NCBI GenBank assembly: GCA_020639315.1
Contig: JACKGM010000001.1
Location: 225,878 to 289,877, forward strand
DNA: 64,000 nt
Source: Candidatus Nomurabacteria bacterium
GTDB taxonomy: Bacteria > Patescibacteriota > Saccharimonadia > JAGOAT01
Direction of reading: 5' to 3'
The first letter of the stretch is position 1. Each line of letters opens with the position of its first letter. A program made the position numbers and the translations under genes. Below the pieces are notes generated by a model. That model was not told the DNA's origin. It searched no databases and worked only from the letters and a program-made list of their open reading frames with translations. This document shows, piece after piece, positions 1 to 44,239 of the stretch.

Positions 1-3000
1 GGTGAGTCTTATGATCTGAAAAACTTATTACTTGTCAGGGAGGACCAAAATGCTTCATTGGTTGATAATCAAGACGGAACATATTCTTTTCGGGGTAGTG
101 ACGGGGTAGAGGTCGTAATCGATACTACTAGCAACTCGGGAGTTGTCACAGAGCTAAAATTATCTGGTAATACTTTGAGTTATACCAATCAGCTTGGGCA
201 GACAGTAGGATTTGATTTGACTGGTTTATCAACTGATAAAATTACTCATATCAATGTCAATAGTTCCAACCAACTAATTTCCTATACCAATGAGGCTGGC
301 ACTACCACCCAGATAGATATTCGTTCTCTTGAAACTACTACCAATCTTCAAGTCGATATTCCTGGTCAAAGTATTCGTTATATCAATGAAGAGGGGGCAG
401 TAGTGACCGCTGATATTACCTCCCTCGAGACCGTTTCAACCTTGGTCGATAACAATAATGGTACCTATACCTATACCAACGAAGATGGGGCTAGCCTGAC
501 TTTTGAAAATACTCTAAGTACTCTTAGCTGTACCAACGGTCAAAGTGTTGCTTGGAATACCGCTACACTTGGTTGGGAGTGTGTTAGCTCGGTGGGCCTG
601 GATGTTTTGACGATGATTAGCGCTAGTGGCTCAACTCTATCCTATCTTGATGAATTGGGTAATACAACAGATATTGATGTCAAAGATCTCGAATCCACCT
701 CCACCCTAGTCGACAACAATAATGGTACATATACATATACTGATGAAGATGGCACCACTACTACCATCACCGATACCCTAGCCACCCTCCTCTGTACTGA
801 TAACCAAGTAGCTTCCTGGGATAATACCAATTCAGTTTGGGTTTGTGCGGACGCTTCTGCCCTTGAAACCCTGACCTACCTCAGCCTCAGTGTTGATGGT
901 CATACTCTAGAGTATCAAGATGAAGATGGATCTACTACTCAAATCAATCTAGCAACAATCATTGATAATTTCGAAAGCCTGACCGCTCTTAGTGTCAACT
1001 CTCTAGCTGGTACTCTCAACTACACTGATGAAGACGGCACAGCCAACACTATCGATCTTAAGCCTCTAATCGCAGCCAACGAAACTCTGACCACCCTGAC
1101 TGTCTCTGGCTCTACTATCACCTATACTGATGAGGATGGGGGTACTACCAATATTGACATTAAGGATCTTGAGACCCTGACCACTGTAGCCCAATCAGGA
1201 CAAGGATCGTTTAGCTACACTGATGAAGCAGGCACAACTCACACTATTGATACAACTGATCTAATCAATTCATCAGGTGATATCACTATCACTGGCTCTG
1301 GTACTACTGCTGATCCTTACATAGTAAGTTTCACTGAAACCCATACTGTATTCACTGGTCTCAATGGAACTGGCAAGGTGATTGGTACATATACTAATGA
1401 AAATGGAGACACCTTTGACTTAAGAGAAACCGTCACCAACCTAGCAATCAATACTACCAATCAAACTATCACCTATACCGATGAACAGGGAAACACAGCC
1501 ACAGCCGACATCAAGCTCCTCGAATCCACCTCCACCCTAGTCGACAACAATAATGGTACATATACATATACTGATGAAGATGGCACCACTACTACCATCA
1601 CCGATACCCTAGCCACCCTCCTCTGTACTGATAACCAAGTAGCTTCCTGGGATAATACCAATTCAGTTTGGGTTTGTGCGGACGCTTCTGCCCTTGAAAC
1701 CCTGACCTACCTCAGCCTCAGTGTTGATGGTCATACTCTAGAGTATCAAGATGAAGATGGATCTACTACTCAAATCAATCTAGCAACAATCATTGATAAT
1801 TTCGAAAGCCTGACCGCTCTTAGTGTCAACTCTCTAGCTGGTACTCTCAACTACACTGATGAAGACGGCACAGCCAACACTATCGATCTTAAGCCTCTAA
1901 TCGCAGCCAACGAAACTCTGACCACCCTGACTGTCTCTGGCTCTACTATCACCTATACTGATGAGGATGGGGGTACTACCAATATTGACATTAAGGATCT
2001 TGAGACCCTGACCACTGTAGCCCAATCAGGACAAGGATCGTTTAGCTACACTGATGAAGCAGGCACAACTCACACTATTGATACAACTGATCTAATCAAT
2101 TCATCAGGTGATATCACTATCACTGGCTCTGGTACTACTGCTGATCCTTACATAGTAAGTTTCACTGAAACCCATACTGTATTCACTGGTCTCAATGGAA
2201 CTGGCAAGGTGATTGGTACATATACTAATGAAAATGGAGACACCTTTGACTTAAGAGAAACCGTCACCAACCTAGCAATCAATACTACCAATCAAACTAT
2301 CACCTATACCGATGAACAGGGAAACACAGCCACAGCCGACATCAAGCTCCTCGAATCCACCTCCACCCTAGTCGACAACAATAATGGTACATATACATAT
2401 ACTGATGAAGATGGCACCACTACTACCATCACCGATACCCTAGCCACCCTCCTCTGTACTGATAACCAAGTAGCTTCCTGGGATAATACCAATTCAGTTT
2501 GGGTTTGTGCGGACGCTTCTGCCCTTGAAACCCTGACCTACCTCAGCCTCAGTGTTGATGGTCATACTCTAGAGTATCAAGATGAAGATGGATCTACTAC
2601 TCAAATCAATCTAGCAACAATCATTGATAATTTCGAAAGCCTGACCGCTCTTAGTGTCAACTCTCTAGCTGGTACTCTCAACTACACTGATGAAGACGGC
2701 ACAGCCAACACTATCGATCTTAAGCCTCTAATCGCAGCCAACGAAACTCTGACCACCCTGACTGTCTCTGGCTCTACTATCACCTATACTGATGAGGATG
2801 GGGGTACTACCAATATTGACATTAAGGATCTTGAGACCCTGACCACTGTAGCCCAATCAGGACAAGGATCGTTTAGCTACACTGATGAAGCAGGCACAAC
2901 TCACACTATTGATACAACTGATCTAATCAATTCATCAGGTGATATCACTATCACTGGCTCTGGTACTACTGCTGATCCTTACATAGTAAGTTTCACTGAA

Positions 3001-6000
3001 ACCCATACTGTATTCACTGGTCTCAATGGAACTGGCAAGGTGATTGGTACATATACTAATGAAAATGGAGACACCTTTGACTTAAGAGAAACCGTCACCA
3101 ACCTAGCAATCAATACTACCAATCAAACTATCACCTATACCGATGAACAGGGAAACACAGCCACAGCCGACATCAAGCTCCTCGAATCCACCTCCACCCT
3201 AGTCGACAACAATAATGGTACATATACATATACTGATGAAGATGGCACCACTACTACCATCACCGATACCCTAGCCACCCTCCTCTGTACTGATAACCAA
3301 GTAGCTTCCTGGGATAATACCAATTCAGTTTGGGTTTGTGCGGACGCTTCTGCCCTTGAAACCCTGACCTACCTCAGCCTCAGTGTTGATGGTCATACTC
3401 TAGAGTATCAAGATGAAGATGGATCTACTACTCAAATCAATCTAGCAACAATCATTGATAATTTCGAAAGCCTGACCGCTCTTAGTGTCAACTCTCTAGC
3501 TGGTACTCTCAACTACACTGATGAAGACGGCACAGCCAACACTATCGATCTTAAGCCTCTAATCGCAGCCAACGAAACTCTGACCACCCTGACTGTCTCT
3601 GGCTCTACTATCACCTATACTGATGAGGATGGGGGTACTACCAATATTGACATTAAGGATCTTGAGACCCTGACCACTGTAGCCCAATCAGGACAAGGAT
3701 CGTTTAGCTACACTGATGAAGCAGGCACAACTCACACTATTGATACAACTGATCTAATCAATTCATCAGGTGATATCACTATCACTGGCTCTGGTACTAC
3801 TGCTGATCCTTACATAGTAAGTTTCACTGAAACCCATACTGTATTCACTGGTCTCAATGGAACTGGCAAGGTGATTGGTACATATACTAATGAAAATGGA
3901 GACACCTTTGACTTAAGAGAAACCGTCACCAACCTAGCAATCAATACTACCAATCAAACTATCACCTATACCGATGAACAGGGAAACACAGCCACAGCCG
4001 ACATCAAGCTCCTCGAATCCACCTCCACCCTAGTCGACAACAATAATGGTACATATACATATACTGATGAAGATGGCACCACTACTACCATCACCGATAC
4101 CCTAGCCACCCTCCTCTGTACTGATAACCAAGTAGCTTCCTGGGATAATACCAATTCAGTTTGGGTTTGTGCGGACGCTTCTGCCCTTGAAACCCTGACC
4201 TACCTCAGCCTCAGTGTTGATGGTCATACTCTAGAGTATCAAGATGAAGATGGATCTACTACTCAAATCAATCTAGCAACAATCATTGATAATTTCGAAA
4301 GCCTGACCGCTCTTAGTGTCAACTCTCTAGCTGGTACTCTCAACTACACTGATGAAGACGGCACAGCCAACACTATCGATCTTAAGCCTCTAATCGCAGC
4401 CAACGAAACTCTGACCACCCTGACTGTCTCTGGCTCTACTATCACCTATACTGATGAGGATGGGGGTACTACCAATATTGACATTAAGGATCTTGAGACC
4501 CTGACCACTGTAGCCCAATCAGGACAAGGATCGTTTAGCTACACTGATGAAGCAGGCACAACTCACACTATTGATACAACTGATCTAATCAATTCATCAG
4601 GTGATATCACTATCACTGGCTCTGGTACTACTGCTGATCCTTACATAGTAAGTTTCACTGAAACCCATACTGTATTCACTGGTCTCAATGGAACTGGCAA
4701 GGTGATTGGTACATATACTAATGAAAATGGAGACACCTTTGACTTAAGAGAAACCGTCACCAACCTAGCAATCAATACTACCAATCAAACTATCACCTAT
4801 ACCGATGAACAGGGAAACACAGCCACAGCCGACATCAAGCTCCTCGAATCCACCTCCACCCTAGTCGACAACAATAATGGTACATATACATATACTGATG
4901 AAGATGGCACCACTACTACCATCACCGATACCCTAGCCACCCTCCTCTGTACTGATAACCAAGTAGCTTCCTGGGATAATACCAATTCAGTTTGGGTTTG
5001 TGCGGACGCTTCAACGGCACCTAGTGTTAGTCAAGTTTATTTAGTTTCGGACCTCAGCCCAAATATTGGAGGAGTACCACAAGATGATCCAGATGATCCA
5101 GCAGAGGCTGCTATGGCCTATAGTGATGATGGTGAAATCTTTTTTAGTTGGAATGTTGCTACTCAGAGTTGGGATATAGTTGAGCAAATTTCTCCGACTG
5201 GCCTAGTCTGTTCGATTTATGATTTTATTTCTCAACCGACCTGGGGGAGTGGAGAGCCTTCTGCCAATAGGTTATTTCATGATTACTTATATAACCCTAC
5301 TACTCAGAGTTATTTACTCTGGAGTAATGATGATCAGCTATACAAGGAAGCACCTTTGCCTAGCTATGGGACATTTAATATCTCGGCAATCGATGACCCA
5401 AGTGCAGAATTTACCAACTATAGCTTGGTAGCAGGAGCAATGGAACCTGCTTGGTATTATACCCAGGCTACTACATCCTTTCAGCAGTCTCGACCTTCTT
5501 CGACTGATACCTTTGATATTGGGGAGAGTTTTATCTGGTCCGCTAGTGACCTAAGTCATATGGTCGGTGTCACCAGTAGCACTACTAACGATATTGCTTA
5601 TACAAATGCAGCGATGGATTTTGTATTTTATCCGTATTTAGCTGCTTGGTCTTCCATTTATACTCCAGCTGCTGGTACTACTGCCAATGGTAATAGTGGA
5701 ACCCTGACCCTTTCCGGTCAGACCAATACCGTGATGTCAAGAACAGACCAAAACGCTTTTACTGCCCCTACTGGTAGTGTCTGGGAGATCAGGAGGACAG
5801 GAAATTTGACCTATGAGATATACGAAGATGGGGCTAAGATAGTAGATGTAGTTACCACTACTGGTGGCACCAAATATATTACGCAAGGATCTGGAGCTAC
5901 TGTTGACTATTATGCAGTAGAACAGAATATGGAGGGTTACTATGGATATGGTAGTGATTCACATAAAGAGTTTTTGCCAAGTGCAAATACTGATACGCTT

Positions 6001-7305
6001 GAAGATGCCTTAGCCAATGGCTACTTTGTCTCAAACCACGAAGCAGATGAGAAGGCAGGATCTACCTGGGATATTACAGACAATTATATACAGGAGACTG
6101 GTGGGTCTGCCAATTATTCTACCTATCTGTCTCAGGTTTATTTGGATGTTGGAGACAAGTTTGTTTATACTCTTGAAGGAGATAATGATACATATGTCGG
6201 GCTTGGAAATACCCAGGTCCCAAATATAGCCTACACGGATGTCTATAATGTATACGGCTCGATACGCTACAACCCAGCCACACCATCGATTTCCTTCGAC
6301 AGTACAGTGGTCTTAAATCCAGCCAGCCAGGGGGGTAGCGGTTATATCTATGAAATAGAAAGAGTGGCAGACGATACAGCAGTGATGAGGATTTACGACA
6401 AGAATAACCCTTCAGTCGTACTAGTAGAATCACAAAATGTATCTAGTAAAGAAAAGTTGGATCGAGCTAGGATAGGTTTTTCAACCAATGTTGATAATGT
6501 CAAAATATTACCAGTCGAAATACCTGTCACTGCTAAGTTACAAGTGGACGGTACTTATTTAGGAGATAATGATCAGGTCTATACCGAGAGTGAGATTCTT
6601 AGTAGCAGTAATGTGAACTGTACACTAGCGGGAGTTGGTGGCGGATCTAACGGAGATTCTGACTGGCTTAAGACTAATGATTCTACGCCTACTGGTATTA
6701 GTGACGATATCTACACCCTTGGTAATGTTGGGATTGGAACCAATGCCCCAAGCGTTGCCTTAGAGATAGACTCGAATACAGTAGATCAGAGTGGACTTAA
6801 GTTGACCCAACTGACAAGAGATAGTGCGGTAGTAGACTGGTATTCACAACCGATCGGGGTAGATATAGCGGGTAATGTTGTCAGGGTACAGTCTGAAGTA
6901 TTACAGGTAGTAGATGCGGTTGGTGCGACCTATATTGCCCCGAGCAATGTGATATCTTTTGATAGTGTATTATCGGGCACCACCTGGATCACTGGTGGTT
7001 GGACTTCAAATCAAGTGGTGACAATCCCTGCCGGGATGAACGCTACCTTGGACGCAGAGGTAGTATTTGGCTTGACCCCAGCTCAGACTGGTACTATTCG
7101 CTACGCTTGGAGAGAAGTTGGCACTTCAAATTATTTTGGGACAGAAGGAGTGCAGACTGTGACCAATAAGACCAAAGGGGCTCGTTATGTTCATCTGGCA
7201 GAGACTACTAGCAAACAGTATGAGCTAGTGATCGTTGATTTTGGTGGAGCTTTGAGTGTCCAGTCAGTTCAGGGTAGCTCAGAGATCTTGGTGCAGGAGT
7301 TTTAA
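1..7305 (+). CDS. Giant repetitive surface/adhesin-like protein, 5'-partial. Frame 1 is open from base 1, so the gene starts upstream of the window. It contains 5.2 tandem copies of a 277-aa repeat built from ~27-aa TYTDEDG-type beta motifs, then a unique ~760-aa C-terminal region.
   Basis: Continuous ORF with no stop from nt 1 to the TAA at 7303-7305. The ORF-track start at 58 is a TTG inside an open frame. Internal 831-nt periodicity shows as antisense ORFs recurring at 642, 1473, 2304, 3135, 3966 and 4797. Protein is low-complexity and T/D/N-rich. Confidence 0.8.
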   Translation, partial: GESYDLKNLLLVREDQNASLVDNQDGTYSFRGSDGVEVVIDTTSNSGVVTELKLSGNTLSYTNQLGQTVGFDLTGLSTDKITHINVNSSNQLISYTNEAGTTTQIDIRSLETTTNLQVDIPGQSIRYINEEGAVVTADITSLETVSTLVDNNNGTYTYTNEDGASLTFENTLSTLSCTNGQSVAWNTATLGWECVSSVGLDVLTMISASGSTLSYLDELGNTTDIDVKDLESTSTLVDNNNGTYTYTDEDGTTTTITDTLATLLCTDNQVASWDNTNSVWVCADASALETLTYLSLSVDGHTLEYQDEDGSTTQINLATIIDNFESLTALSVNSLAGTLNYTDEDGTANTIDLKPLIAANETLTTLTVSGSTITYTDEDGGTTNIDIKDLETLTTVAQSGQGSFSYTDEAGTTHTIDTTDLINSSGDITITGSGTTADPYIVSFTETHTVFTGLNGTGKVIGTYTNENGDTFDLRETVTNLAINTTNQTITYTDEQGNTATADIKLLESTSTLVDNNNGTYTYTDEDGTTTTITDTLATLLCTDNQVASWDNTNSVWVCADASALETLTYLSLSVDGHTLEYQDEDGSTTQINLATIIDNFESLTALSVNSLAGTLNYTDEDGTANTIDLKPLIAANETLTTLTVSGSTITYTDEDGGTTNIDIKDLETLTTVAQSGQGSFSYTDEAGTTHTIDTTDLINSSGDITITGSGTTADPYIVSFTETHTVFTGLNGTGKVIGTYTNENGDTFDLRETVTNLAINTTNQTITYTDEQGNTATADIKLLESTSTLVDNNNGTYTYTDEDGTTTTITDTLATLLCTDNQVASWDNTNSVWVCADASALETLTYLSLSVDGHTLEYQDEDGSTTQINLATIIDNFESLTALSVNSLAGTLNYTDEDGTANTIDLKPLIAANETLTTLTVSGSTITYTDEDGGTTNIDIKDLETLTTVAQSGQGSFSYTDEAGTTHTIDTTDLINSSGDITITGSGTTADPYIVSFTETHTVFTGLNGTGKVIGTYTNENGDTFDLRETVTNLAINTTNQTITYTDEQGNTATADIKLLESTSTLVDNNNGTYTYTDEDGTTTTITDTLATLLCTDNQVASWDNTNSVWVCADASALETLTYLSLSVDGHTLEYQDEDGSTTQINLATIIDNFESLTALSVNSLAGTLNYTDEDGTANTIDLKPLIAANETLTTLTVSGSTITYTDEDGGTTNIDIKDLETLTTVAQSGQGSFSYTDEAGTTHTIDTTDLINSSGDITITGSGTTADPYIVSFTETHTVFTGLNGTGKVIGTYTNENGDTFDLRETVTNLAINTTNQTITYTDEQGNTATADIKLLESTSTLVDNNNGTYTYTDEDGTTTTITDTLATLLCTDNQVASWDNTNSVWVCADASALETLTYLSLSVDGHTLEYQDEDGSTTQINLATIIDNFESLTALSVNSLAGTLNYTDEDGTANTIDLKPLIAANETLTTLTVSGSTITYTDEDGGTTNIDIKDLETLTTVAQSGQGSFSYTDEAGTTHTIDTTDLINSSGDITITGSGTTADPYIVSFTETHTVFTGLNGTGKVIGTYTNENGDTFDLRETVTNLAINTTNQTITYTDEQGNTATADIKLLESTSTLVDNNNGTYTYTDEDGTTTTITDTLATLLCTDNQVASWDNTNSVWVCADASTAPSVSQVYLVSDLSPNIGGVPQDDPDDPAEAAMAYSDDGEIFFSWNVATQSWDIVEQISPTGLVCSIYDFISQPTWGSGEPSANRLFHDYLYNPTTQSYLLWSNDDQLYKEAPLPSYGTFNISAIDDPSAEFTNYSLVAGAMEPAWYYTQATTSFQQSRPSSTDTFDIGESFIWSASDLSHMVGVTSSTTNDIAYTNAAMDFVFYPYLAAWSSIYTPAAGTTANGNSGTLTLSGQTNTVMSRTDQNAFTAPTGSVWEIRRTGNLTYEIYEDGAKIVDVVTTTGGTKYITQGSGATVDYYAVEQNMEGYYGYGSDSHKEFLPSANTDTLEDALANGYFVSNHEADEKAGSTWDITDNYIQETGGSANYSTYLSQVYLDVGDKFVYTLEGDNDTYVGLGNTQVPNIAYTDVYNVYGSIRYNPATPSISFDSTVVLNPASQGGSGYIYEIERVADDTAVMRIYDKNNPSVVLVESQNVSSKEKLDRARIGFSTNVDNVKILPVEIPVTAKLQVDGTYLGDNDQVYTESEILSSSNVNCTLAGVGGGSNGDSDWLKTNDSTPTGISDDIYTLGNVGIGTNAPSVALEIDSNTVDQSGLKLTQLTRDSAVVDWYSQPIGVDIAGNVVRVQSEVLQVVDAVGATYIAPSNVISFDSVLSGTTWITGGWTSNQVVTIPAGMNATLDAEVVFGLTPAQTGTIRYAWREVGTSNYFGTEGVQTVTNKTKGARYVHLAETTSKQYELVIVDFGGALSVQSVQGSSEILVQEF
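690..5010. repeat. Tandem direct repeat, period 831 bp (277 codons), ~5.2 copies. Copies appear identical at nucleotide level. It lies inside the giant CDS.
   Basis: Identical strings (e.g. ctcgaatccacctccaccctagtcgacaacaataatggtacatatacatatactgatgaagatggc) recur at 690, 1521, 2352, 3183, 4014 and 4845. The last copy is truncated near 5010, where the sequence diverges (TAPSVSQVY). Confidence 0.9.
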
Positions 7306-7308
7306 GGC

Positions 7309-7944
7309 GTGAGACCCGACAACTCTCGTCGTCGCAATCTGGCTTGGGTGGGAGTGGCAATAGTGGTATTTATGGGGTATAGCTATGCTTATGATACGAT
7401 TATGGGTAGGTCTAGACAGAGTACAGGCTTAGATACAATTTACGACTTCCCATGGTATCTCAATGACAGTGGAGGTAAATCCCAAGATCTTAGTCCGGGA
7501 CAAGAAACAATTACATCAGAAAACTTGGATCAGATTAAGGATAGGCTGGACTCACAATTATTGGTCAAGGGAGATCAGGTGTTTGTCTTTACCAAGGCTA
7601 ATGTGGGGGTGGTTTATCGGCCTGAGGAAAATAAGATAGTGCATTTATTCACCCCTAGTGCAGTCAATGCTAGGAAAGTGGCATATCTCTATGGGGATGA
7701 TTTGGAATCATTAAAGGTGGCCAAGCAAAAGCTTACTCAAGCGTATGGTCTAGCTTTGATTATTAAGACCATAGACTCGTCAGGGCTGATAGATATGGGG
7801 GTAGCGAGAGTGGTTGATGTCAAGGGGGATGAGCCCGAGGCTACGAGGCAGATAGCTGGTAGTCTTGGATTGTCAGTGTCTGGTGAGACTCCTGGCAATC
7901 TGGATTTGCCTGAGGATGCTAGTTTTTTGGTGATCATTGATTAG
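7309..7944 (+). CDS. Hypothetical membrane-anchored protein (N-terminal TM/signal anchor), 211 aa. It starts 4 nt after the giant gene.
   Basis: ORF with GTG start at 7309. Hydrophobic segment LAWVGVAIVVFMGYSYA. No recognisable catalytic motif. Confidence 0.5.
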   Translation: MRPDNSRRRNLAWVGVAIVVFMGYSYAYDTIMGRSRQSTGLDTIYDFPWYLNDSGGKSQDLSPGQETITSENLDQIKDRLDSQLLVKGDQVFVFTKANVGVVYRPEENKIVHLFTPSAVNARKVAYLYGDDLESLKVAKQKLTQAYGLALIIKTIDSSGLIDMGVARVVDVKGDEPEATRQIAGSLGLSVSGETPGNLDLPEDASFLVIID

Positions 7945-8075
7945 AGAGAAATTTCGCTGGTGTTCATCCCAAGGTGTCACCGTACAAATTAAGTGATTTA
8001 TGTCATAATCCAGGTAGACGGTATCTTTTTGTATCAAAAATACCTGCAAGGTTTCACCTCAATAAACCTCAATAA

Positions 8076-8912
8076 AAATACTGGATCCCCCGTAAGTTCT
8101 CTGAACTTCGGAGGATGACAATGCTATGGATCCCCCGTAAACCCTTCGGGTTTCGGAGGATGACAAGACAAGGGACGGGTTTCGGAGGATGACAATGCCC
8201 TCTGTGTGTCATCTTCCAAATTTCCGTAGGAAATTATGGGAGATCCACCTCCCGTGTCATCTTCGGATTACCCGGAGGGTAATACCGGAGATCCAGTATT
8301 TGAATTGAATCCCAGTAATGCAAAATACTGGATCCCCCGTAAGTTCTCCGAACTTCGGAGGATGACAATGCTATGGATCCCCCGTAAACCCTTCGGGTTT
8401 CGGAGGATGACAAGACAAGGGACGGGTTTCGGAGGATGACAATGCCCTCTGTGTGTCATCTTCCAAATTTCCGTAGGAAATTATGGGAGATCCACCTCCC
8501 GTGTCATCTTCGGATTACCCGGAGGGTAATACCGGAGATCCAGTATTTGAATTGAATCCCAGTAATGCAAAATACTGGATCCCCCGTAAGTTCTCCGAAC
8601 TTCGGAGGATGACAATGCTATGGATCCCCCGTAAACCCTCTGGGTTTCGGAGGATGACAAGACAAGGGGCGGGTTTCGGAGGATGACAAGACAAGGGGCG
8701 GGTTTCGGAGGATGACAGGAGAAGGGTGGGTTTCGGAGGATGACAAGACAAGGGGCGGGTTTCGGAGGATGACAAGACAAGGGACGAGCTTCGGAGGATG
8801 ACAAGAGAGAGGCGGAGTTTCGGAGGATGACAAGAGAGAGGCGGAGTTTCGGAGGATGACAAGACAAGGGACGAGTTTCGGAGGATGACAAGAGAAAGGC
8901 GGGGTTTCGGAG
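8076..8912. mobile_element. Cluster of three abutting copies of the composite MITE/REP-like element (family 1). Approximate copy spans are 8076-8321, 8323-8568 and 8569-8912.
   Basis: Repeated AAATACTGGATCCCCCGTAAGTTCTCCGAACTTCGGAGGATGACA arm, inverted arm TGTCATCTTCGGATTACCCGGAGGGTAATACCGGAGATCCAGTATTT, and hairpins (tccgaa-c-ttcgga, attaccc-gga-gggtaat). No coding capacity. Confidence 0.75.
8644..8912. repeat. Tandem array of ~9 units of a 29-nt sub-repeat (GGAGGATGACAAGACAAGGGGCGGGTTTC and variants). It is a minisatellite embedded in the MITE-like element.
   Basis: Direct reading shows a 14-nt core TTCGGAGGATGACA alternating with a 15-nt semi-variable segment, nine times. Confidence 0.85.
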
Positions 8913-8918
8913 GTTATT

Positions 8919-11900: not shown

Positions 11901-12921
11901 GTTTGAAGTCATCCGCCGTCTCTTCGGTCCCTACTTCGCGATCGAAGATGGTTCAGCCACAGTGCTCGGGGAAATAGTCAAAGGTGTCTATCCTGAAGAC
12001 AATGACCTAGACATCACTCGTCATACCCACATCCTGACCGCCACCAATGAAATCTCTTCAATCTTCTGCTCACTAACCGAGATCATGGCAGCCGGAGAGA
12101 GTGTAGACTGTACTAGTCCTAGTGACCTAGCTGGAGCCGGATACCCAATCCGTCTAGACGGAGGTAGCAAGGACAACTTTGTCAATGTACTTGACTCAAT
12201 AGAGAGTCTAATCGCAGAACCAGACTCCTCCCCCTATGAAGTAGTTACTATTAACAACCTAAACCAAATCCCCCTTGACCTCAGTGATGGTAAGAGCCCA
12301 GACTTCGAACCTGATCCCAACTCCACCACTACCCCAGTCCCTTACCCCACCCTCTATGTCTATGATGGAGATCTAGAGATCTCAGCTAGTCAAGCTATGC
12401 ACTACAATGCAGGTCTAGCTACTATCTACGTCAGGGGTAATGTCTACATCAATGGAGACATCATCAGAGATGACAATACAGTGATAGAAGACATAGATGA
12501 GTATCCCAACCTAGGTATTATCTCTACTGGCAATATCTACATCAGACCAGACACCTCCAAATCAGTAGAGACTCCCCAAGTAATTGACGCCAGTCTCTTC
12601 GCCCAAGGTATGATCGAAACAGCCTACCGTCAAACCACTCAAACCCCAATCCCCGAATACTATACCAACCAACCCCTAATCTTCCATGGTACAGTAGCCT
12701 CCAAGGGAGATGAGAGTGTCCCAGGAGTCAAAGACCCAATCACCAATCAAGTCTATGCCTTCAAACTAAACAGGACCAATGTCTCAGTCACCCTAGGACA
12801 AGACTGTAACAATACTCAAGTCTCTGAATGCTTTGCACCAGACAACTCAATCTTTATTGCTACTCCTCCGGGGTTTGAGGATCGGTTGGGGGAACTAAAT
12901 AGTGATGAGATAGTATATTAG
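8992..12921 (+). CDS. Giant modular surface protein paralog 1 (1309 aa). It has an N-terminal TM anchor, DUF11-like 'conserved repeat domain' modules, and the shared ~330-aa C-terminal beta-helix-like domain.
   Basis: ATG with GGAGGG RBS. TM helix WLIAGLLFVIGLGLFAY. DUF11-like motifs VKFGPGESITYKISVQNISQYQAINVRVTDNDLP and GKPIKWRISVTNNGPDSAVSLVND. The 3' ~1 kb is near-identical to three downstream genes. Confidence 0.85.
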   Translation: MEENNNNQVGAKARKPRFTHWVRSEWLIAGLLFVIGLGLFAYQGNKPEQITEQPEPTTVLEEGQVAIVGDEILTEETLAGYVEYNQIDRNQAIDQWVDLKRMQIAAEQVGLDLVTGYTTRVGDYPGSFDDRDIELENQFYKEALSAELARQQAGKPVGGVMVWNFIKLGNSGQYEVDQETKDYAFAQAKDYKSRLESGEIKIVDAVAEQSLDPRVKFPTVGSISASFGYYPDQELVDTLRFNSKEVFDTIGSQDIAGISEILTYSTSQYQEKDGNIDAGYYLYYLDKANPARPQIEEEYNKADQEITVTIKDRESQETEAVSWISALAPIAEAADANGIPTQQELHWLVHSNPTAAAADYGVDPTVLNFALYFGVVTLDGQLYDSEVQWKIEGYLPDPEYKYKGTDVLECPDCDARIFGDARSFVAPDPNNMYPPGYDLGLPRIGNSVSTTTSDGNFDLLRNDGLVMDCFGAVAQIKVTATIPAIGKSITTPASGFRNILNTTITYDRFDFTSDPEPEEPEPAGDAEVEIKKWVINETETPGQPQDANTADRAVKFGPGESITYKISVQNISQYQAINVRVTDNDLPTQYADFSGWNGTWYVGNLSPGTYKKIEIKGTIKTEFQDYDYYTNTARVDYQYKVPCTAQEKLIHDIPYILASTSPPPCPDKILSGSDDDPANIKPKYADLKIVKTTYDTDNQTAYKGKPIKWRISVTNNGPDSAVSLVNDRGAIVQDRVPVESLQGETAKWYCNPTNYCQPNSGIVTRANPVIKTEVFLKNSYATVDIFIEGVVGPYIDGGSNVETIPTLEICNPSNDLLEVVSDTYVPWDPNEEDNTYERSCVPVVVCYDEDGNQLTNYPGVPFPDEYVHMVGVDNEGDDLYNPDNSNQVFDLNGYDIICRLPDPPPKEPGTKVCDVIGFYEDEKGNKTEIEVHRDLFQGSAAGADTTAVGHYTFEISCYETTESPTHSSIEFEVIRRLFGPYFAIEDGSATVLGEIVKGVYPEDNDLDITRHTHILTATNEISSIFCSLTEIMAAGESVDCTSPSDLAGAGYPIRLDGGSKDNFVNVLDSIESLIAEPDSSPYEVVTINNLNQIPLDLSDGKSPDFEPDPNSTTTPVPYPTLYVYDGDLEISASQAMHYNAGLATIYVRGNVYINGDIIRDDNTVIEDIDEYPNLGIISTGNIYIRPDTSKSVETPQVIDASLFAQGMIETAYRQTTQTPIPEYYTNQPLIFHGTVASKGDESVPGVKDPITNQVYAFKLNRTNVSVTLGQDCNNTQVSECFAPDNSIFIATPPGFEDRLGELNSDEIVY
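11896..12892. repeat. Copy 1 of the ~1-kb near-identical 3' coding tract (EVIRRLFGPYFAIEDG...ATPPGFEDR) shared by four giant genes.
   Basis: Nucleotide strings are identical to 17118-18107, 24165-25152 and 32325-33315, apart from a handful of SNPs. Confidence 0.9.
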
Positions 12922-12982
12922 TATTGCTTATGGTAATATAAGGATATACTATATAGAAATGAATAGTTAAGGATGGAGGGAA

Positions 12983-18150: not shown

Positions 18151-19980
18151 ATGTCAATCAAAACAAAAATATTAGCAGGAGGTTTGGTTGCTAGCCTGAT
18201 CTTAGTAGTGATTGGCTTTGGTTACTATAGCCAGTTGAGCCAAGGATTGATCAAGCTAGGGGCTAGCTATCTAGATCAAGCTTACCTTGCCAGTCGAGTA
18301 GAGCTAGCTGAAGATTACGGGGTTGATGCTAGGACTGCTCTAAGAGCCAGTGCAGATTTTGATCAGTATTATCAGATTTCTAGAGAATTAGGGCTCGAGA
18401 TTACAGAGCAAGATTTAAGGGACACCGGGTATTATCTAGAGCAAGAATATAGAGAAAACATTTTATTTAGGGCCAATACATTTAAAAGAGCCTTGGATAT
18501 TAAGGTAGAGGGTAGATCTAGGGGGCAGTACCAAGGAGCTCTTTTTACATTTCCAATCGTTAGCTATGACAACCAAGAAGGGGTGATTAGGAGCGCTACT
18601 GCTGCGTCCAAACAATATGCCCTAGACCAAGCAAACCAATACCGTGAAGCGATTGCTTCAGGAAAAGACCCCGAGGTCTTGATCGAGCAAATCAAGTCAG
18701 ATCCTAGGCTAGATTTGCCGATGGCGGATAATAGCTCAAGATTAGTAGGCTACAAAGAAAATGAAAGCTGGCAAAATATCCTTGGCGCTTATCATGAGGA
18801 TGTTATTGCTGAGCTGGAGAGAGGGGTAGATCCTGGACTAGGTGAAGTAAAGTTGGCCTATAGTTACCGGGAGGATCCAGCAGATCAAGAGGAGTTTATG
18901 TATTACTTTATCGATATCGCTGAGCACGAGCCAAAGGATTCGGAGATAGATCAACTCTACCAGAGCAAGCTAGCAGATAAGAGCTTGTTACTAAGCCTGC
19001 TAAATAAGCTTGATCATAGTGACCTAGAAATAGTACCAGAAGTCTATGCGGATGAGAGTAGTAACCATCAGGCCACAGAGTCGATACGCAATCAAATGAT
19101 TGCTGCTAATCCTAGAGCAAGATTGTTTGGTGATGTCCAGGGTCAGGTACTTGGTAGTGATAACAAAGGAGTATTTGGGGCTATTGTCAAAGTGACTTTT
19201 GAGATACAAGTATCAAATTGTCTAGAGTGTGACTGGGCTTTTGTTCGGGCTAAGGATATCTTGACACCGGCAGAAGTGGCAGCAGTCAAGCAGGGTACTC
19301 TCCAGTCTATCGGTAGTTCTGCCAATGAATTTGCCCCAAGGTACAAAGAGACAAGTATTGAACTAGTCACAGATGAGGAAGGCTGGTGGTCACTCAGTAG
19401 TATTGGGCTACTAGTCGACTGTAATACATCTGGAGGACACCCTCCGACTAAGATTAAGTACAAGGTATATGATATTTTTGATGGAGATATTTCGGATTTG
19501 CCTAGTAGTATCGGTGAGGCTGATCTCAACTATGTAGGGGTCAATTCGGTTACTAGTATAGTTGGCGGCTCTGCTCCTACCCAAAGTATCGGGACTAGCC
19601 AGGCGGGGATAGTCAATGTCGGTGGAATCAATGTAGCACAGTCGATTGCCGGTAATCTAGCTAAAATGCTTGATGCCGCCAAGGCCGACGGGGTCAATTT
19701 ATCAGGAGGTGGATATCGATCAAATGCGACCCAAGTACAGCTGAGGATAAGCCACTGTGGATCTTCAAACTATGCAATTTACCAGATGCCATCCAGCCAG
19801 TGTAGTCCACCGACTGCTAGGCCAGGTAAATCGAACCATGAGAAGGGCTTAGCAATCGATTTTAATAATTGTAGTAGTCGGAGTACTGCTTGCTATAGAT
19901 GGCTCAACGCTAACGCAAATCAGTATGGATTTTATAATTTGCCGAGTGAATCTTGGCACTGGTCGGTCAATGGCAAATAG
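18151..19980 (+). CDS. Membrane-anchored secreted protein (609 aa) with a C-terminal peptidase M15 (VanY / D-Ala-D-Ala carboxypeptidase-like, LAS superfamily) domain. Its N-terminal ~450 aa are homologous to the N-terminal module of the giant protein at 25278.
   Basis: TM LAGGLVASLILVVIGFGYY. Zinc-peptidase motifs SNHEKGLAIDF (SxHxxGxAxD) and ESWHWS in the last 90 aa. Protein-level similarity to ORF 25278 residues ~140-520 (NCLECDWAFV vs NCAECDSAFV; GWWSLSSIGLLVDCN vs GYFSLSAIDIVFDCN). Confidence 0.65.
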   Translation: MSIKTKILAGGLVASLILVVIGFGYYSQLSQGLIKLGASYLDQAYLASRVELAEDYGVDARTALRASADFDQYYQISRELGLEITEQDLRDTGYYLEQEYRENILFRANTFKRALDIKVEGRSRGQYQGALFTFPIVSYDNQEGVIRSATAASKQYALDQANQYREAIASGKDPEVLIEQIKSDPRLDLPMADNSSRLVGYKENESWQNILGAYHEDVIAELERGVDPGLGEVKLAYSYREDPADQEEFMYYFIDIAEHEPKDSEIDQLYQSKLADKSLLLSLLNKLDHSDLEIVPEVYADESSNHQATESIRNQMIAANPRARLFGDVQGQVLGSDNKGVFGAIVKVTFEIQVSNCLECDWAFVRAKDILTPAEVAAVKQGTLQSIGSSANEFAPRYKETSIELVTDEEGWWSLSSIGLLVDCNTSGGHPPTKIKYKVYDIFDGDISDLPSSIGEADLNYVGVNSVTSIVGGSAPTQSIGTSQAGIVNVGGINVAQSIAGNLAKMLDAAKADGVNLSGGGYRSNATQVQLRISHCGSSNYAIYQMPSSQCSPPTARPGKSNHEKGLAIDFNNCSSRSTACYRWLNANANQYGFYNLPSESWHWSVNGK

Positions 19981-20857: not shown

Positions 20858-23800
20858 ACTGTTGATATTCGGTATCCTGATAGTCGGAGTTTTTGGTCTG
20901 ATGCAGATGGTTCGACCTAGCTTGGCTGGGACTGAGCCTCCAACCCCTGAGCTTAGCCAAGAGGCATTTGACAAGGCTTTTAATCTTGAGCCCGACCAGT
21001 TTGAAGACTTTAAGACAGTCTATGGCAAGAGTGAGTATAGCCCCTTTTATGCCAAGGTTAGCCCAGCGACTCCCGAAGTCGGAAATCTTTGCTGGAAAAC
21101 AGCGGAGGAGACTGATACTGAGGCAGAGCCAACCCAATCCCAGCTAGAAGATCCTGAGTATCAGCAGTCCTTGGAGGATTGTCAGGATTGGTTGATTTCT
21201 CTCAATCCGTATTTAGCTAGAGAGATTTACCGGGATTATCTCAAGACTACCGATTGGTTCAAGGGCAGCGAATCACTGTCGGACAATGATCTGATCTATG
21301 GCAAGATGGGGGTAATGGTTTACTGCCAGGTATTGGGTCAAGATTATCAATTGAGCTTTGACGATGATAAGCAGAAGTGTTTAGAATCGATTACTGACTA
21401 TGATCAGACTGACGAAGCAGGGGTTTGTAAGGATCTAGAAGAGTTTGGGTACAATTGGGAAGATCAAGCTTGTAAGTATAGTCTGGAGTCATCAGATAAT
21501 TCTGAGCTAGATCAAGCTATAGATCAGCTTGACTTAGACCAGAACTCTAGTGCCGACGCTGGTGGTGGCCCTCCTGCAGGTAAAGTTTTAGGCAGAATAA
21601 ACGCTAGTGGGGAGTGTGAAGTAGACAATCCAATCTTGCAGTGGTGTCCACCGGTAGTGCTTGATGCGGCTGCTCCGACTGGCACTAGTGTCAGTGGCCT
21701 AGGGACTGAACCGAGAAAGGGCATACCTGATCCGCCCCGTAGCTCTGAGATTAGTAACAAGCCTGACGATTTGGGTGAGCGAGAACGCCCCGTCATCTCG
21801 ATCAAAAAATACGTCGGTCACACAGTAGATGATCTCAGTGATGCCCAAGACTCAGCTACAGCTGTCAAGTTCTATCCTGGTCAATCGATAGTCTATCAAG
21901 TAGTAATTACTCATCAGTCTGGAGCAGATGCGACCAAAGTAGTCTGGTCTGATGAAAACCTTGATGGATTTGTCTCAGGTGGACTGATGGAACTAGGAGA
22001 TTGGACTAGTGATACTCAAGTAGATGACATCTTCTCCTTCCCTCTCAAACAAGGAGAAGAGATTACCTTCTTAAGAGAAGGCACAATCTCCCTAGATGCT
22101 GGTCTCTTCGGTCTAGATCAAGAATCAGTTCTTAACTCAACTGCTGCCCTTGAAAACATCGCCAGTGTCGATGAACTCAATGATGCTGATCCTGGGATTG
22201 CTAGTAGTGATCCCGCTAATATCTTACCAATGCTTTCAGACCTCACCCTCCGTAAGCAAGTCTCCAACCTCACCGAAACCCCATTCCTCTCCCCAGGCAC
22301 AAGTCCCTACTACCTCAGTGATGGTCCTATCTACTATGATGCAGATAGTATAGACAATGCAGTCTCCTTCGGTCCTAGTGAAGAGATAGAGTACCGTATA
22401 GAGATAATAAACAACGGTCCAGACGAAGCCACCTCTATCAGCTTCACTGATCCTGATCTCCCAGATGAGCTAGTAGACTGGGAGTCAGACGGCTGGATCA
22501 ACGCTGAGACTGGTGAAACCGTATCCTCAGGAGATACCATCTTCCCAATCCCAGCCGAAGGAGCTCCGACTGAATTCCTCTGGCCTGAAGAGTCCAAGAC
22601 GATTGATCCTGAGACCAAAGCAGAAACCACAGTCAACAATATCACTGAAGGTAAGAGAGTCAGAATAGTCCTAACCAAGAAAGGTAGAATCAAGAACGAC
22701 CTAGCTAATACCGATTGGTTCCAGTCTAATACTGCTCACCAAAACACTGCAGAAGTCTCTACTATCAATCCAGAAACCAACTATGACAACAATACCAACG
22801 ATGCCTACATCGACCCCAAGGTCACAGACATCATCATCGGTAAAGTCGGTCAGACTGGTAATGACACTGGTCTAGCAGGTAAAGAACTAACTTGGACGAT
22901 TAGAGTAGTCAACAATGGTAAAGACTCAGCTATCTCTCTCGTAGACAATGGAGGAATCAAGCTAACCGACTACCTCAACCTCAAAGACACCTACAATGAA
23001 ACAGTTACCTATCAATGTGTCCCTGCCTATGCCTGCAGTGTCCCAACCGGAGAAATCAACTCCACTGACAATCCCGAAGGTATCCTAGACCTAGAACTCT
23101 ACCTCGGCCCTGGCTTTGGAGACATGGAGCAAGTAGACTTCATCGATATCCTCTCAGATGAGGAGCTGTCAGCCAACCAAACCGACACTACCAACAACAA
23201 CACCACCACCAACAACAACACTAACACCACTAACACCAATAACACCAACACCACCACCAACACTAACACTACCAACAACACTACCAACAACACTGACACC
23301 ACCCAAACCACCAATACTGATCTAACCACCCTCCCCGTCTGTGAGACTGGTAGATTCATCGGTATTAACAAGGCTACTGACACTACTACAGGCTTCAACC
23401 CCGATATCAACGAGGATGGCAATGGAGACCTCTATGTTCTCTTCAATACCAATTGCTTTAGCTCCTACCCTGACCTCAGCCACTTCGAGCTAACAGACCT
23501 CTCCCTTAGCAGTGATGAAGTAGTCAACTACCTCACCCAGTATCAAGGTGGTAAAATTGCTTACTATCAAACCCCTACTCACCTAAACACCACCAATCAA
23601 GTAGACATCCAAATCACCGCTAGACTAGCTGACCATGTCACCTATGGTGATGATGTCACTACTCAAGCAGTAGATGAGATCTGTAATCCTAGTGACAAGA
23701 ACAACCCTGATCAAAAAGTCCATGTCGAAAAGACCGAAACCGTAGCCTGGGAATTGTCACTAGACAATAACACCGCTCCCCTAAGATGTATCCCAGTAAT

Positions 23801-33510: not shown

Positions 33511-33996
33511 TGTCATCCTCCAGTTAAATACTGGATCTCCGGTATTACCCTAAAGGGTAATCCGAAGATGACACGGGAAGGGCATTGTCATCCTCCGAAT
33601 TCTCCTTGTCCTGTCATCCTCCGAAGTTCGGAGAACTTACGGGGGATCCAGTATTTTACATCGTGCATTGTCATCCTCCGAAGATCCGAAGGAGCTTACG
33701 GGGGATCCAGTATTTTGCATTTCTGGGATTCAATTCAAATACTGGATCTCCGGTATTTCTCTCTGGGTAATCCGAAGATGACGCGGGAAGGGCATTGTCA
33801 TCCTCCGAAGTTCGGAGAACTTACAGGGGATCCAGTATCTTGCATTGCCTTGAGATTCAATTCAAATACTGGATCTCCGGTATTTCTCTAAAGAGAAATC
33901 CGAAGATGACAGGAGGAGGGCATTGTCATCCTCCGAAACTCCGAAGGAGTTTACGGGGGAACCAGTATTTTGCATCGTGCATTGTCATCCTCCGAA
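33511..33996. mobile_element. Cluster of MITE/REP-like family 1 elements in mixed orientations (at least 4 arm pairs). It ends about 30 nt upstream of miaA.
   Basis: Multiple AAATACTGGATCTCCGGTATT...CCGAAGATGAC arms and reversed TGTCATCCTCCGAAGTTCGGAGAACTTACGGGGGATCCAGTATTT arms. Confidence 0.75.
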
Positions 33997-34767: not shown

Positions 34768-35079
34768 AGATTCAAATACTGGATCTCCGGTATTTCTCTA
34801 AAGAGAAATCCGAAGATGACAGGAGGAGGTGGATCTCCGGTATTACCCTCCGGGTAATCCGAAGATGACAGGAGGAGGGCATTGTCATCCTCCGAATTCT
34901 CCTTGTCCTGTCATCCTCCGAAGTTCGGAGAACTTACGGGGGATCCAGTATCCCTGTATTTACAGGTATTCAATTCAAATACTGGATCTCCGGTATTTCT
35001 CTTTTAGAGAAATCCGAAGATGACAAGAAGGGCATTGTCATCCTCCGAAGTTCGGAGAACTTACGGGGGATCCAGTATC
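34768..35079. mobile_element. MITE/REP-like family 1 cluster downstream of miaA.
   Basis: Same arm, hairpin and sub-repeat signatures in both orientations. Confidence 0.75.
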
Positions 35080-37509: not shown

Positions 37510-38050
37510 AAATACTGGATCCCCCGTAAGTTCTCCGAACTTCGGAGGATGACTAATGCGCGAAATACTGGTTCCCCCGTAAACTCCTTCGGAGTTTCGG
37601 AGGATGACAAGACAAGAGAGAGTGTCGGAGGATGACAATGCCCTTCCCGTGTCATCTTCGGATTTCTCTAAAAGAGAAATACTGGAGATCCACCCTCTCC
37701 TGTCATCTTCGGATTACCCGGAGGGGAATACCGGAGATCCACCTCCTCGTGTCATCTTCGGATTACCCGGAGGGTAATACCGGAGATCCAGTATTTGAAT
37801 TTGGTATTAAAGTAATGCGAAATACTGGATCCCCCGTAAGTTCTCCGAACTTCGGAGGATGACTAATGCGCGAAATACTGGTTCCCCCGTAAACTCCTTC
37901 GGAGTTTCGGAGGATGACAAGACAAGAGAGAGTTTCGGAGGATGACAAGACAAGAGAGAGTTTCGGAGGATGACAAAAGAAGGGTGGACTTCGGAGGATG
38001 ACAGGACGAGGGGTTTCGGAGGATGACAATGCAAAGCCTGGATTCGGAGG
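37510..38050. mobile_element. MITE/REP-like family 1 cluster. It includes a ~5-unit 29-nt sub-repeat array at about 37895-38040.
   Basis: Same signatures. The array reads ggaggatgacaagacaagagagagtttc repeated with variants. Confidence 0.75.
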
Positions 38051-43029: not shown

Positions 43030-43161
43030 AGTCATCCTCCGAAACCCGCCTCTCTTCTGTCATCCTCCGAAGTTCGGAGAACTTACGGGGGATCCAGTAT
43101 CCGGCATTGTGCATTGTCATCCTCCGAATCCTCATAGAGGATTACAGGGGATCCAGTATTT
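43030..43161. mobile_element. MITE/REP-like family 1 element (two reversed arms) between rodZ-like and recA.
   Basis: tgtcatcctccgaagttcggagaacttacgggggatccagtat and gtcatcctccgaatcctcatagaggattacaggggatccagtatttt. Confidence 0.7.
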
Positions 43162-43240: not shown

Positions 43241-44239
43241 ATGAGTAATACAAAAGATCCAGCCAAGAGTAAGGCAATCGACATGGCTTTAGAGCAGATA
43301 GAGCGACAGTTTGGTTCTGGCGCAATCATGCGTTTTGGTCAAGGCCAGAAGGTACAAGTAGAAACCTTTTCTTCTGGTAGTCTCAACCTAGACGAAGCAC
43401 TTGGTGGTGGTTTGCCAAAAGGTAGAATTATCGAGATTTATGGTCCAGAGTCTAGTGGTAAGACTACCTTATCATTGCACGCAGTGGCTGAGGTTCAAAA
43501 ATCTGGTGGTACTGCTGCATTCATCGATGCAGAGCATGCTCTGGATCCAGAATACGCAAGCAAGATTGGGGTCAAACTCGATGAGCTACTGATCTCTCAG
43601 CCAGACAATGGTGAGCAGGCACTGGAGATCTGCGAGACTCTAGTCCGCTCAGCTGCCGTCGATTTGGTAGTAGTTGATTCAGTAGCAGCTTTGGTGCCAA
43701 AAGCTGAGATCGACGGCCTGATGGGGGATAGTCATGTCGGTCTGCAGGCTAGGCTAATGTCTCAGGCTTTGCGTAAGTTGACAGGCATTGTCTCCAAGTC
43801 TAATACAACAGTAATCTTTATCAATCAGTTGAGACTCAAGATAGGAGTGATGTTTGGTAACCCTGAGACCACACCTGGTGGTCAGGCCTTGAAGTTTTAT
43901 GCATCAGTCAGGCTAGACATCCGGAGAACCGAAAGACTTACTAAGGAGCAAGAACAGATAGGCAATCGGGTCAAGGTCAAGGTGATCAAGAATAAGATTG
44001 CTCCACCCTTCAAGATTGCTGAGTTTGATATCATGTACAATCAAGGGATTTCCAGGAGTGGCGAAGCTCTAGATATTGGTCTAAACTTAGGCTTAATCAA
44101 GAAATCAGGCTCTTGGTACAGCTATGGTGAAGACAAGATTGGCCAAGGAGCTCAGGCAGCCAAGGAATTTTTGGAAGCCAACCCAAAGGTGCTTAATAAA
44201 ATAGTAAATGAAGCGAAAGCCAAGTCCAAGTCTAAATAA
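43241..44239 (+). CDS. recA: Recombinase RecA.
   Basis: [39 protein letters not shown] and the remainder are canonical RecA. An AGGAGG RBS lies 7 nt upstream. Confidence 0.95.

Follow-up and report, generated by a model that had tools for sequence, protein, structure and literature searches.

A giant repeat protein gene with an exact 831-nt tandem array in a patescibacterial genome: a candidate surface fibre of variable length

How can repeats of several hundred nucleotides stand side by side in one bacterial gene without a single difference between them, and what kind of protein does such a gene encode? Both questions are raised by the first 7,305 nucleotides (nt) of a 64,000-nt stretch of DNA deposited under the name Candidatus Nomurabacteria bacterium (assembly GCA_020639315.1, contig JACKGM010000001.1, positions 225,878 to 289,877 of the forward strand). 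The whole stretch is called the window here, and positions refer to it unless another contig is named. An earlier reading, made from the sequence alone, had pointed to an exact tandem array inside a giant open reading frame (ORF). Its interpretation proved largely right but incomplete, and we regard it as partly supported: it gave no identity for the protein, which we believe to be an anchored surface fibre with a tail-fibre-like distal end.

The exact array and its counterpart in a related genome

When the window was compared with itself at a lag of 831 nt, each nucleotide from 688 to 4181 was found to be identical to the one 831 nt further on. These 3,494 consecutive matching positions, with 0 mismatches, exclude chance origin of the array. 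The array occupies 688-5012 on the plus strand. It consists of five complete 831-nt units (688-1518, 1519-2349, 2350-3180, 3181-4011 and 4012-4842, all on the plus strand) and the first 170 nt of a sixth (4843-5012, same strand; one module and a Cys-loop), which amounts to 5.2 copies. The sequence-only reading had placed the exact array of 831-nt units, 277 amino acids (aa) each, at 690-5010, that is, 2 nt off at each end. Since 831 is three times 277, every unit is in frame. Tandem Repeats Finder, whose maximum period was 500, overlooked the array because the period of 831 exceeds this limit.

The array is embedded in a 5'-truncated ORF for a giant repeat protein (1-7305, plus strand). Frame 1 is open throughout, from nucleotide 1 to the stop codon at 7303-7305, and comprises 2,434 visible codons. 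The length of 2,415 aa given previously had been counted from the first TTG at nt 58.

An ortholog of this gene is present in GCA_017983775.1 (contig JAGOAT010000012.1), where gene order is the same as in the window. There, the sequence runs from one full unit through 126 nt of a second copy, a gap of 100 N and 44 nt that continue the unit exactly into the unique C-terminal part. The sequence-only reading had proposed a comparison with related strains, and this one reveals that both genomes share the 831-nt period and a last copy that stops after 170 nt, while copies are identical within each genome. In JAGOAT010000012.1 itself, the 170 nt do not differ between copies, whereas 25 of the 170 sites differ from the window. 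Over the whole unit, 123 of 831 sites differ between ortholog and window (14.8% of nucleotides).

Since both genomes have the same period and end point, and each has its own identical copies that have diverged from those of the other, the duplication predates the split of the two lineages and the copies evolve in concert. The pattern is the signature of homogenisation, by either unequal crossing-over or gene conversion; that independent duplications should have produced identical end points is unlikely. As a rough inference, the rule of three (0 differences in 3,494 paired positions) sets divergence of adjacent copies below ~0.09%, as against the 14.8% between genomes. The earlier suggestion that the array has recently expanded or is continually homogenised is thus borne out by an ortholog that keeps identical copies of a diverged unit.

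To estimate selection, window and ortholog were compared by the Nei-Gojobori method. The unit displays 87 synonymous and 22 non-synonymous codon differences, with a synonymous divergence (dS) of 0.73 and a ratio of non-synonymous to synonymous divergence (dN/dS) of 0.062, the lowest of the protein. The corresponding ratio is 0.165 for the region preceding the array and 0.079 (dS 1.21) for the non-repeated C-terminal region, referred to below as the head. Judged by these values, the gene is real and under purifying selection. No part of the protein is more conserved than the repeated shaft, an argument that it folds into a functional structure.

A paralog of the repeat gene was observed in both GCA_017983775.1 and GCA_020428505.1. 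It adjoins an ion-channel gene and contains a near-perfect array with a period of 633 nt (211 aa). N-terminal helix, Cys-containing N-domain, modules with the motif YTDEDG and Cys-loop module are found in it as in the repeat gene. The paralog lies at 3211-7252 of a GCA_017983775.1 scaffold, where a 100-N gap interrupts its array, and at 1082-2721 of a GCA_020428505.1 contig, where the array is cut by the contig end. In this protein family, perfect super-repeats are thus found more than once.

None of the six short-read contigs and scaffolds that were retrieved resolves the array of the repeat gene or that of the paralog, and the previous warning that short reads could mis-estimate copy number holds in general terms. 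In JAGOAT010000012.1 the 100-N gap lies inside the array, after one unit and 126 nt. A Logan contig equals window 4983-8104 at 100% identity; it begins exactly 30 nt within the 3' end of the array and breaks off 30 nt into the following tandem repeat, which is the behaviour of a graph with k=31 (30 = k-1). Two further contigs begin within the head. Contig JAGQMQ010000087.1 ends at window 637, 51 nt upstream of the array; a search within the window found no exact repeat at this position to explain its end, which is thus not attributable to the array. Both flanks of the array are confirmed at 99.9-100% identity by five independent contigs. Arrays of this kind explain why such genes go missing or fragmented in metagenome-assembled genomes (MAGs) built from short reads. 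Their diversity in genomes of the candidate phyla radiation (CPR) is therefore probably underestimated.

Further relatives are scarce. With the head as query, genome contigs yielded no additional relative of this lineage. The unit retrieved from them only two distant MAG matches, one from Acidimicrobiales and one from Pacebacteria, and metagenome contigs searched with the head and with a 50-nt conserved DNA pattern contained no further relative.

From N-terminal helix to distal end

The 5' end of the gene is found on JAGQMQ010000087.1 (GCA_020428505.1; 2,888 nt), which is 100% identical to window 1-637. On this contig the gene starts 552 nt upstream of the window, and a YchF GTPase gene and an ORF of 124 aa come before it. 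This adds 184 N-terminal residues, beginning with MKKQKASYTKILLAALSVILIYGFVTSLW, to a full protein of ~2,618 aa. The true gene is thus longer, as the sequence-only reading had supposed, if only by ~7% relative to the visible part. In a 19-residue hydropathy scan (KD19) a value of 1.84 is reached at aa 9-27, while the visible ORF nowhere exceeds 1.26. The N-terminal part consists of this hydrophobic helix and a small Cys-containing domain. Hydropathy therefore predicts one signal or anchor helix, at the N-terminus, and none that could anchor the C-terminus.

The region preceding the array (1-687, plus strand; 229 residues) contains five older, diverged modules of the YTDEDG type. Among them is a diverged copy of the Cys-loop module at nt 424-591, whose segment 424-488 is 78% identical to the start of the unit. 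Diverged partial copies of the unit were also detected upstream of the array in the ortholog, using phmmer with the unit as query.

Each unit is itself composite. It contains seven Y-x-[DN]-[EQ]-x-G motifs, spaced by 59, 36, 34, 31, 58, 28 and 31 aa. The basic module, with its YTDEDG motif, measures 28-36 aa, and two insertions of ~27 aa are present per unit, one of them a Cys-x16-Cys hairpin. The sub-motifs of ~27 aa described before were roughly right as to the motif, whereas the module is longer than was then stated. Strict motif matches in the visible ORF number 41, and the shaft comprises at least 41 β-modules.

Structure prediction of the 277-aa unit, another suggestion of the sequence-only reading, was performed with AlphaFold2 (AF2) on 41 aligned sequences. 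It yielded a string of three-stranded β-meanders, one per module, with a hairpin for the Cys-loop (mean pLDDT 74.9, pTM 0.28) and a stretch of low confidence at residues 195-230; it provided no fold relative in the PDB. Low pTM together with serial β-meanders is consistent with an elongated, non-globular unit.

The copy of Pfam used contains no model specific to the YTDEDG module family, and neither the unit nor the profile of its family has a sequence match in the PDB. Several names offered for the ORF, i.e. DUF903, Chitin_bind_4, HSDR_N and eRF1_3 (Pfam), YgdI/YgdR (NCBIfam) and those of PHROG families, were rejected, as no stretch passed individually. The Pfam and NCBIfam matches cover only 20-50 aa of the respective profiles, their whole-protein scores being sums of weak β-hairpin matches, and the identical spurious pattern appears in homologs of the repeat protein.

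Related modules do occur elsewhere. At 30-45% identity, the YTDEDG module is present in many proteins of Flavobacteriia (Nonlabens, Winogradskyella, Myroides and others) named "beta strand repeat-containing protein" by NCBI, and sequence comparison also finds it in a virion structural protein of Cellulophaga phages phi4:1 and phi17:2. Foldseek against viral models (BFVD) placed the phi4:1 tail fibre and structural protein among the top matches, at 21-23% identity, and the giant ORF has a weak PHROG tail-fibre match. Taken together, these matches point to a repeat that builds fibres. The Flavobacteriia proteins also carry a motif with the consensus QVGIGxxxPxxxxxL, but this GIG motif is located at their N-terminus, that of the window protein near the C-terminus. 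None of the Flavobacteriia or phi4:1 proteins is characterised. The 277-aa super-unit was not seen in these proteins, one of which shows a repeat of ~135 aa.

As an observation in its own right, the module is distributed mainly over marine Flavobacteriia, the Cellulophaga phage virion protein and this CPR lineage, with the distant Acidimicrobiales and Pacebacteria MAG matches in addition. Such a patchy distribution suggests that a fibre module may have spread horizontally.

We interpret the non-repeated C-terminal region (5013-7302, plus strand; ~763 aa) as the distal head. Lineage-specific sequence makes up its first ~500 aa, and a lineage-specific stretch of ~570 aa corresponds to ORF residues 1671-2239. 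The query used for it comprises 764 aa (window 5011-7302) and begins two nucleotides inside the 3' end of the array. Among 5.8 billion proteins and 1.84 billion representatives, head residues 1-500 match only the ortholog, at 82-83% identity, and a sequence search of the PDB with the head gave no match. LamG/ConA-like domains, guessed from motifs such as EIYEDGAKIV, were dropped for want of Pfam support at E<=10.

A different picture is obtained near the C-terminus. There, at 6661-6900 (plus strand), lies a module of the type known from tail fibres and from MAT fibres of Bdellovibrio, reading DWLKT...IYTLGNVGIGTNAPSVALEI...SGLKLTQL...IGVDIAGNVVRV. Its capping-loop motif (GNVGIGTxxPxxxLEI) is located at nt 6718-6768 (aa 2240-2256) and is followed by 178 aa to the C-terminus. 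The core of the motif, VGIGTNAPSVAL at aa 2243-2254, occurs in one copy and fits the consensus V-G-(x)-G/N-small-x-x-P-x-x-x-L. In the AF2 model of the head, confidence is high in this module (pLDDT 81-91) and nowhere else.

Head residues 540-730 are common to 75 remote homologs, which share that stretch only. Several of the homologs match PHROG tail-fibre families, and one possesses a Peptidase_S74 chaperone domain and a type IX secretion (T9SS) sorting domain. The family profile matches crystal structures of Bdellovibrio bacteriovorus MAT fibres, namely Bd2133 (8OND, E 3e-15), 8OML and 8OJN, whose chains cover only C-terminal parts of the proteins. A direct BLASTP comparison with Bd2133 pairs IYTLGNVGIGTNAPSVALEIDSNTVDQSGLKL with its last capping loop (37% identity over 51 aa, E 6e-4).

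In structures of MAT fibres, the capping-loop consensus sits on intertwined trimeric β-helices and is common to S74 phage fibres (Caulton et al. 2024, PMC10769870). MAT fibres bear adhesive tips that vary; their conserved N-terminal domain, β-rich, ~130 aa long and placed right behind the signal peptide, is predicted to lie next to the predator surface (PMC10769870). The window protein resembles MAT fibres (Bd2133, 8OND) in the order of its parts, with an export signal, a cell-proximal N-domain, a long fibre and a C-terminal tip following a capping-loop motif. The setting would be alike as well, since one bacterium must recognise the surface of another, which for the window organism is inferred from its phylum.

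Differences are nevertheless considerable. The window protein has one capping-loop motif, similarity is confined to ~50-100 aa, the profile of its YTDEDG shaft modules does not match MAT structures, and the protein is ~2.5 times longer than Bd2133 and devoid of the S74 chaperone domain. No match to PF13884 (Peptidase_S74) was detected on head segments even at E<=10, which leaves only the non-S74 subgroup possible. Because the window sequence alone is unmatched in the PDB, the S74 domain is absent and the motif occurs once, the protein is not classed as a MAT; all that we conclude is that its distal end is of the MAT/tail-fibre type.

A proposed host-contact fibre of variable length and competing readings

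Patescibacteria account for a large share of bacterial diversity, and their cultivated members live attached to other microbes. To our knowledge, type IV pili and a small number of essential envelope proteins that contain glycan-binding domains are almost all that is known of the proteins by which they choose and hold their hosts. The gene described here is a concrete candidate: it would encode a very large anchored fibre with a tail-fibre-type tip, whose shaft length can change without breaking the frame. We favour, with moderate confidence, the reading that it is a host-contact fibre of the cell surface with variable length, similar to the so-called Periscope proteins.

The mechanism might be as follows. 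The N-terminal hydrophobic helix would hold the protein in the membrane or export it through the membrane, and the long β-rich shaft would project the ~760-aa non-repeated C-terminal region, with an end similar to the capped tips found on tail fibres of phages and on the MAT fibres by which Bdellovibrio recognises its prey, away from the cell. Seven YTDEDG modules and two insertions form the 277-aa super-unit, present 5.2 times with identical DNA. Homologous recombination (unequal crossing-over or gene conversion) keeps the units identical, recA being encoded in the window. As 831 can be divided by 3, units can be gained or lost without any frameshift, and shaft length alone is altered. Recombination in the array would in this way set shaft length and, through it, the reach of the head, whose most likely role is to contact or recognise the surface of another cell. 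As an order-of-magnitude guess, one unit would add ~10-16 nm if each module adds 1.5-2 nm.

For surface proteins whose tandem domains are highly identical in DNA, changes in length through intragenic recombination are known (Whelan et al. 2021, PMC8201768). Compared with the Periscope examples SasG/Aap, Rib, Sgo_0707, Esp and CdrA (PMC8201768), the window protein has a putative stalk of the same kind, built of tandem units with near-100% DNA identity (here 0 mismatches), the same in-frame array, so that recombination alters length alone, and likewise a distinct non-repeated region at the end far from its putative anchor. It differs in that its unit is a 277-aa composite of seven small β-modules and two insertions, not one globular domain, in that its repeat family lacks a Pfam model in the library used, and in that it belongs to a CPR bacterium. 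The Periscope class is defined by length variation between strains, whereas the window array is known from one assembly; variable length, which the sequence-only reading had thought likely between cells or strains, is an expectation here, not a result.

The window protein may also be compared with other long adhesins. Giant adhesins such as Marinomonas MpIBP, SiiE and Bap/Esp likewise project a ligand-binding end on very long extenders of near-identical β-rich repeats. They are characterised by BIg or cadherin-like domains, type I secretion and rigidification by Ca2+, all of which were undetected for the window protein.

Would the array be better explained by the way the genome was assembled? 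It could be that the repeat is present while the assembler or consensus polishing produced its 5.2 copies, its absolute identity or both. Reads that map to several copies can make these uniform, their number can be a guess made from coverage, and other assemblies break or gap at or near the array (at its 3' edge, inside it and 51 nt upstream). Yet the same assembly separates repeats of 1-2.9 kb in neighbouring DUF11 genes that are 98.7-99.8% identical (0.2-1.3% differing sites), and since these are kept apart, it is not collapsing or blindly homogenising repeats. Identical RecA is encoded on a 445,775-nt contig, as against short-read contigs of 2.7-3.1 kb from the same organism, which suggests that long reads spanned the 4.3-kb array. 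An artefact would moreover have to produce an array that is in frame, ends at a structural module boundary, shares period and end point with a relative and is flanked on both sides by sequence that five independent contigs confirm at 99.9-100%. We therefore regard an artefact as unlikely, and complete absence of the array as much less likely still. Another reading accepts the array as a recent expansion in a protein associated with wall, sheath or S-layer, whose length is fixed and not used as a "periscope". Indeed, no length variant was observed, and the strong purifying selection on the unit (dN/dS 0.06) fits a purely structural role equally well. A single recent expansion nevertheless fails to explain a relative (dS ~0.73) with the same array phase and its own identical copies. 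Same phase and internally identical copies in both genomes require ongoing recombination, and length variants are therefore inevitable. The distinct ~763-aa C-terminal region with its tail-fibre-type tip motif also points to a projected functional end rather than to a lattice subunit, and we give the fixed-length reading only a small chance.

That the repeats themselves bind a ligand, by multivalent adhesion or as Ca2+ sites in the acidic YTDEDG turns, so that copy number would tune avidity and not reach, is to our mind improbable. The acidic turn D/N-E-x-G is the most conserved feature of every module, and presumably resembles the second half of DxDxDG calcium-binding loops. No lectin or calcium-binding family of Pfam or NCBIfam, however, gave a match passing on its own, and the module is present in virion and tail-fibre proteins of phages, in which repeats of this kind usually make up the shaft. 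Some arrayed domains of Periscope proteins may bind ligands too (PMC8201768), which speaks for this reading. Finally, weak PHROG tail-fibre matches, a distal motif common to tail fibres and a nearby VanY peptidase domain matching a tape-measure PHROG might suggest a prophage or phage-derived tail-fibre gene instead of a cellular surface protein. This was rejected on gene context and retains a very slight probability. Capsid, portal, terminase, baseplate and integrase genes are absent among the neighbours, which are chromosomal (YchF, RuvC, YebC and ComEC upstream in the relative; MurT, FtsK, RodZ, RecA, ValRS and RNase Y downstream); gene order is preserved in two genomes that have diverged; and an N-terminal membrane helix is atypical for a virion fibre.

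Several points weigh against the host-contact fibre that we prefer. No copy-number variant was seen, the other assemblies of the locus stopping or gapping at or near the array, and both the copy number of 5.2 and the absolute identity rest on one assembly. With an N-terminal helix as anchor and a C-terminal head, the protein is the reverse of classic Gram-positive (LPXTG) Periscope proteins. Rod-like geometry is only suggested by the model of the unit, for which Foldseek against the PDB returned nothing meaningful (TM ~0.1). The head has no recognisable binding domain, with no Pfam domain even at E<=10, and the AF2 monomer of the 764-aa head is poor (pLDDT 48), which is compatible with a trimer without proving one; the fibre could be a monomeric string of beads or a trimer as in tail fibres. 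It is a single stretch of ~50-100 aa, bearing the motif, that connects the protein with MAT and tail fibres, and the window sequence alone finds nothing in the PDB. Epibiotic lifestyle of the organism is assumed from its phylum, and one record labels the identical RecA as "Candidatus Nomurabacteria".

The host-contact fibre may be taken one step further. The protein could represent the CPR counterpart of phage tail fibres and MATs, i.e. a giant, membrane-anchored and probably trimeric host-recognition fibre in which recombination resets shaft length while the tip determines the host, with YTDEDG modules and the GIG motif forming a fibre "toolkit" exchanged between Flavobacteriia, their phages and Patescibacteria. 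We consider this extension conceivable though doubtful; interest in the gene would rise if it were indeed a trimeric, MAT-like device of CPR epibionts. The principle of a stalk of identical repeats is already known, and the value of the locus thus lies in a new organism and an undescribed repeat family, not in a new mechanism. It also offers a clean case of concerted evolution in a reduced genome. A full-text search returned no paper linking Patescibacteria with tail-fibre-like or fibrillar adhesins, which is weak evidence of novelty and limited to the collection covered.

A probable surface-protein cluster and other features of the window

The window represents bacterial chromosome, with genes for MurT, FtsK, RodZ, RecA, ValRS and RNase Y, one tRNA-Gly and a GC content of 43-47%; YchF, RuvC, YebC and ComEC genes are located upstream of the repeat gene in the relative. 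RecA (gene at 43241-44239) is 100% identical to a protein labelled Candidatus Nomurabacteria and 96% identical to one labelled Candidatus Saccharibacteria, while the remaining named matches, at 71-75% identity, belong to Saccharibacteria or Patescibacteria. The taxonomic labels are thus in conflict: the identical RecA is filed under Candidatus Nomurabacteria, the 96% RecA and the contigs carrying the locus under Candidatus Saccharibacteria, a name also borne by both assemblies closest in the repeat gene. With this conflict noted, the organism is treated here, on the basis of such matches, as a CPR/Patescibacteria bacterium of Saccharibacteria type. In Southlakia epibionticum, a cultivated Saccharibacterium, transposon sequencing (Tn-seq) showed that epibiotic growth requires several envelope-associated proteins that possess glycan-binding domains and that the authors call adhesins (PMC10633639).

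The repeat gene stands first in a 33-kb cluster whose genes encode giant proteins anchored at their N-terminus, namely four DUF11 proteins (1,309-2,682 aa) and a VanY-domain protein. Since the neighbouring DUF11, VanY-domain and 211-aa proteins all start with hydrophobic helices, we take the locus for a surface-protein cluster. The 211-aa protein, with its N-terminal hydrophobic helix, is encoded by an ORF at 7309-7944 (plus strand) that starts 4 nt after the stop codon of the giant gene. Its ortholog is found in the same position at 12337-12972 of JAGOAT010000012.1 (72.5% aa identity, dN/dS 0.123), and an identical protein is encoded on three independent metagenome contigs. Scans of Pfam, PHROG and NCBIfam gave no family match for it. 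The product may be an accessory or partner of the fibre.

The four DUF11 genes (8992-33326) encode proteins of 1,309, 1,717, ~1,471 and 2,682 aa with N-terminal transmembrane helices. Their 3' segments of 1-2.9 kb are 98.7-99.8% identical, and the encoded proteins have nearly the same C-terminal tail (...QDCNNTQVSECFAPDNSIFIATPPGFEDRL...), whereas the 5' parts of the genes are different. Such a pattern suggests that the paralogs undergo gene conversion and combine a constant C-terminal module with N-terminal parts that vary. Two of the genes also contain tandem codon repeats with a short period (9-15 nt), located at 23152-23343 and 31315-31506, in equivalent positions of the duplicated segment. 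In the middle of the giant-protein cluster, at 18151-19980, lies the gene for a 609-aa protein that combines an N-terminal transmembrane helix with a VanY-type D-Ala-D-Ala carboxypeptidase domain at its C-terminus. Such an enzyme could act on the cell wall, either that of a host or that of its own cell.

The window further contains a family of short repeats. The 14-nt motif TTCGGAGGATGACA occurs 65 times (with at most 1 mismatch), as against 0.03 occurrences expected. Its copies are clustered in at least 11 regions, most of them intergenic, with a spacing of ~28-29 nt. Of these clusters, the largest (8075-8913) is located directly downstream of the repeat gene and consists of a 247-nt unit present 2.5 times and a 29-nt unit present 9.4 times; the others lie at 33586-33996, 34883-35049, 37541-38028, 43030-43128, 44752-45070, 48121-48293, 51180, 55515-55771, 58889-59200 and 61669-62067. 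The 29-nt repeats at 8642-8913 were considered as a possible CRISPR, which was rejected as the units are contiguous and without spacers, and a search of Rfam gave no match to the elements. Copies related to them are also present in JAGOAT010000012.1. The clusters look like an element family of this lineage similar to repetitive extragenic palindromes (REPs) or miniature inverted-repeat transposable elements (MITEs).

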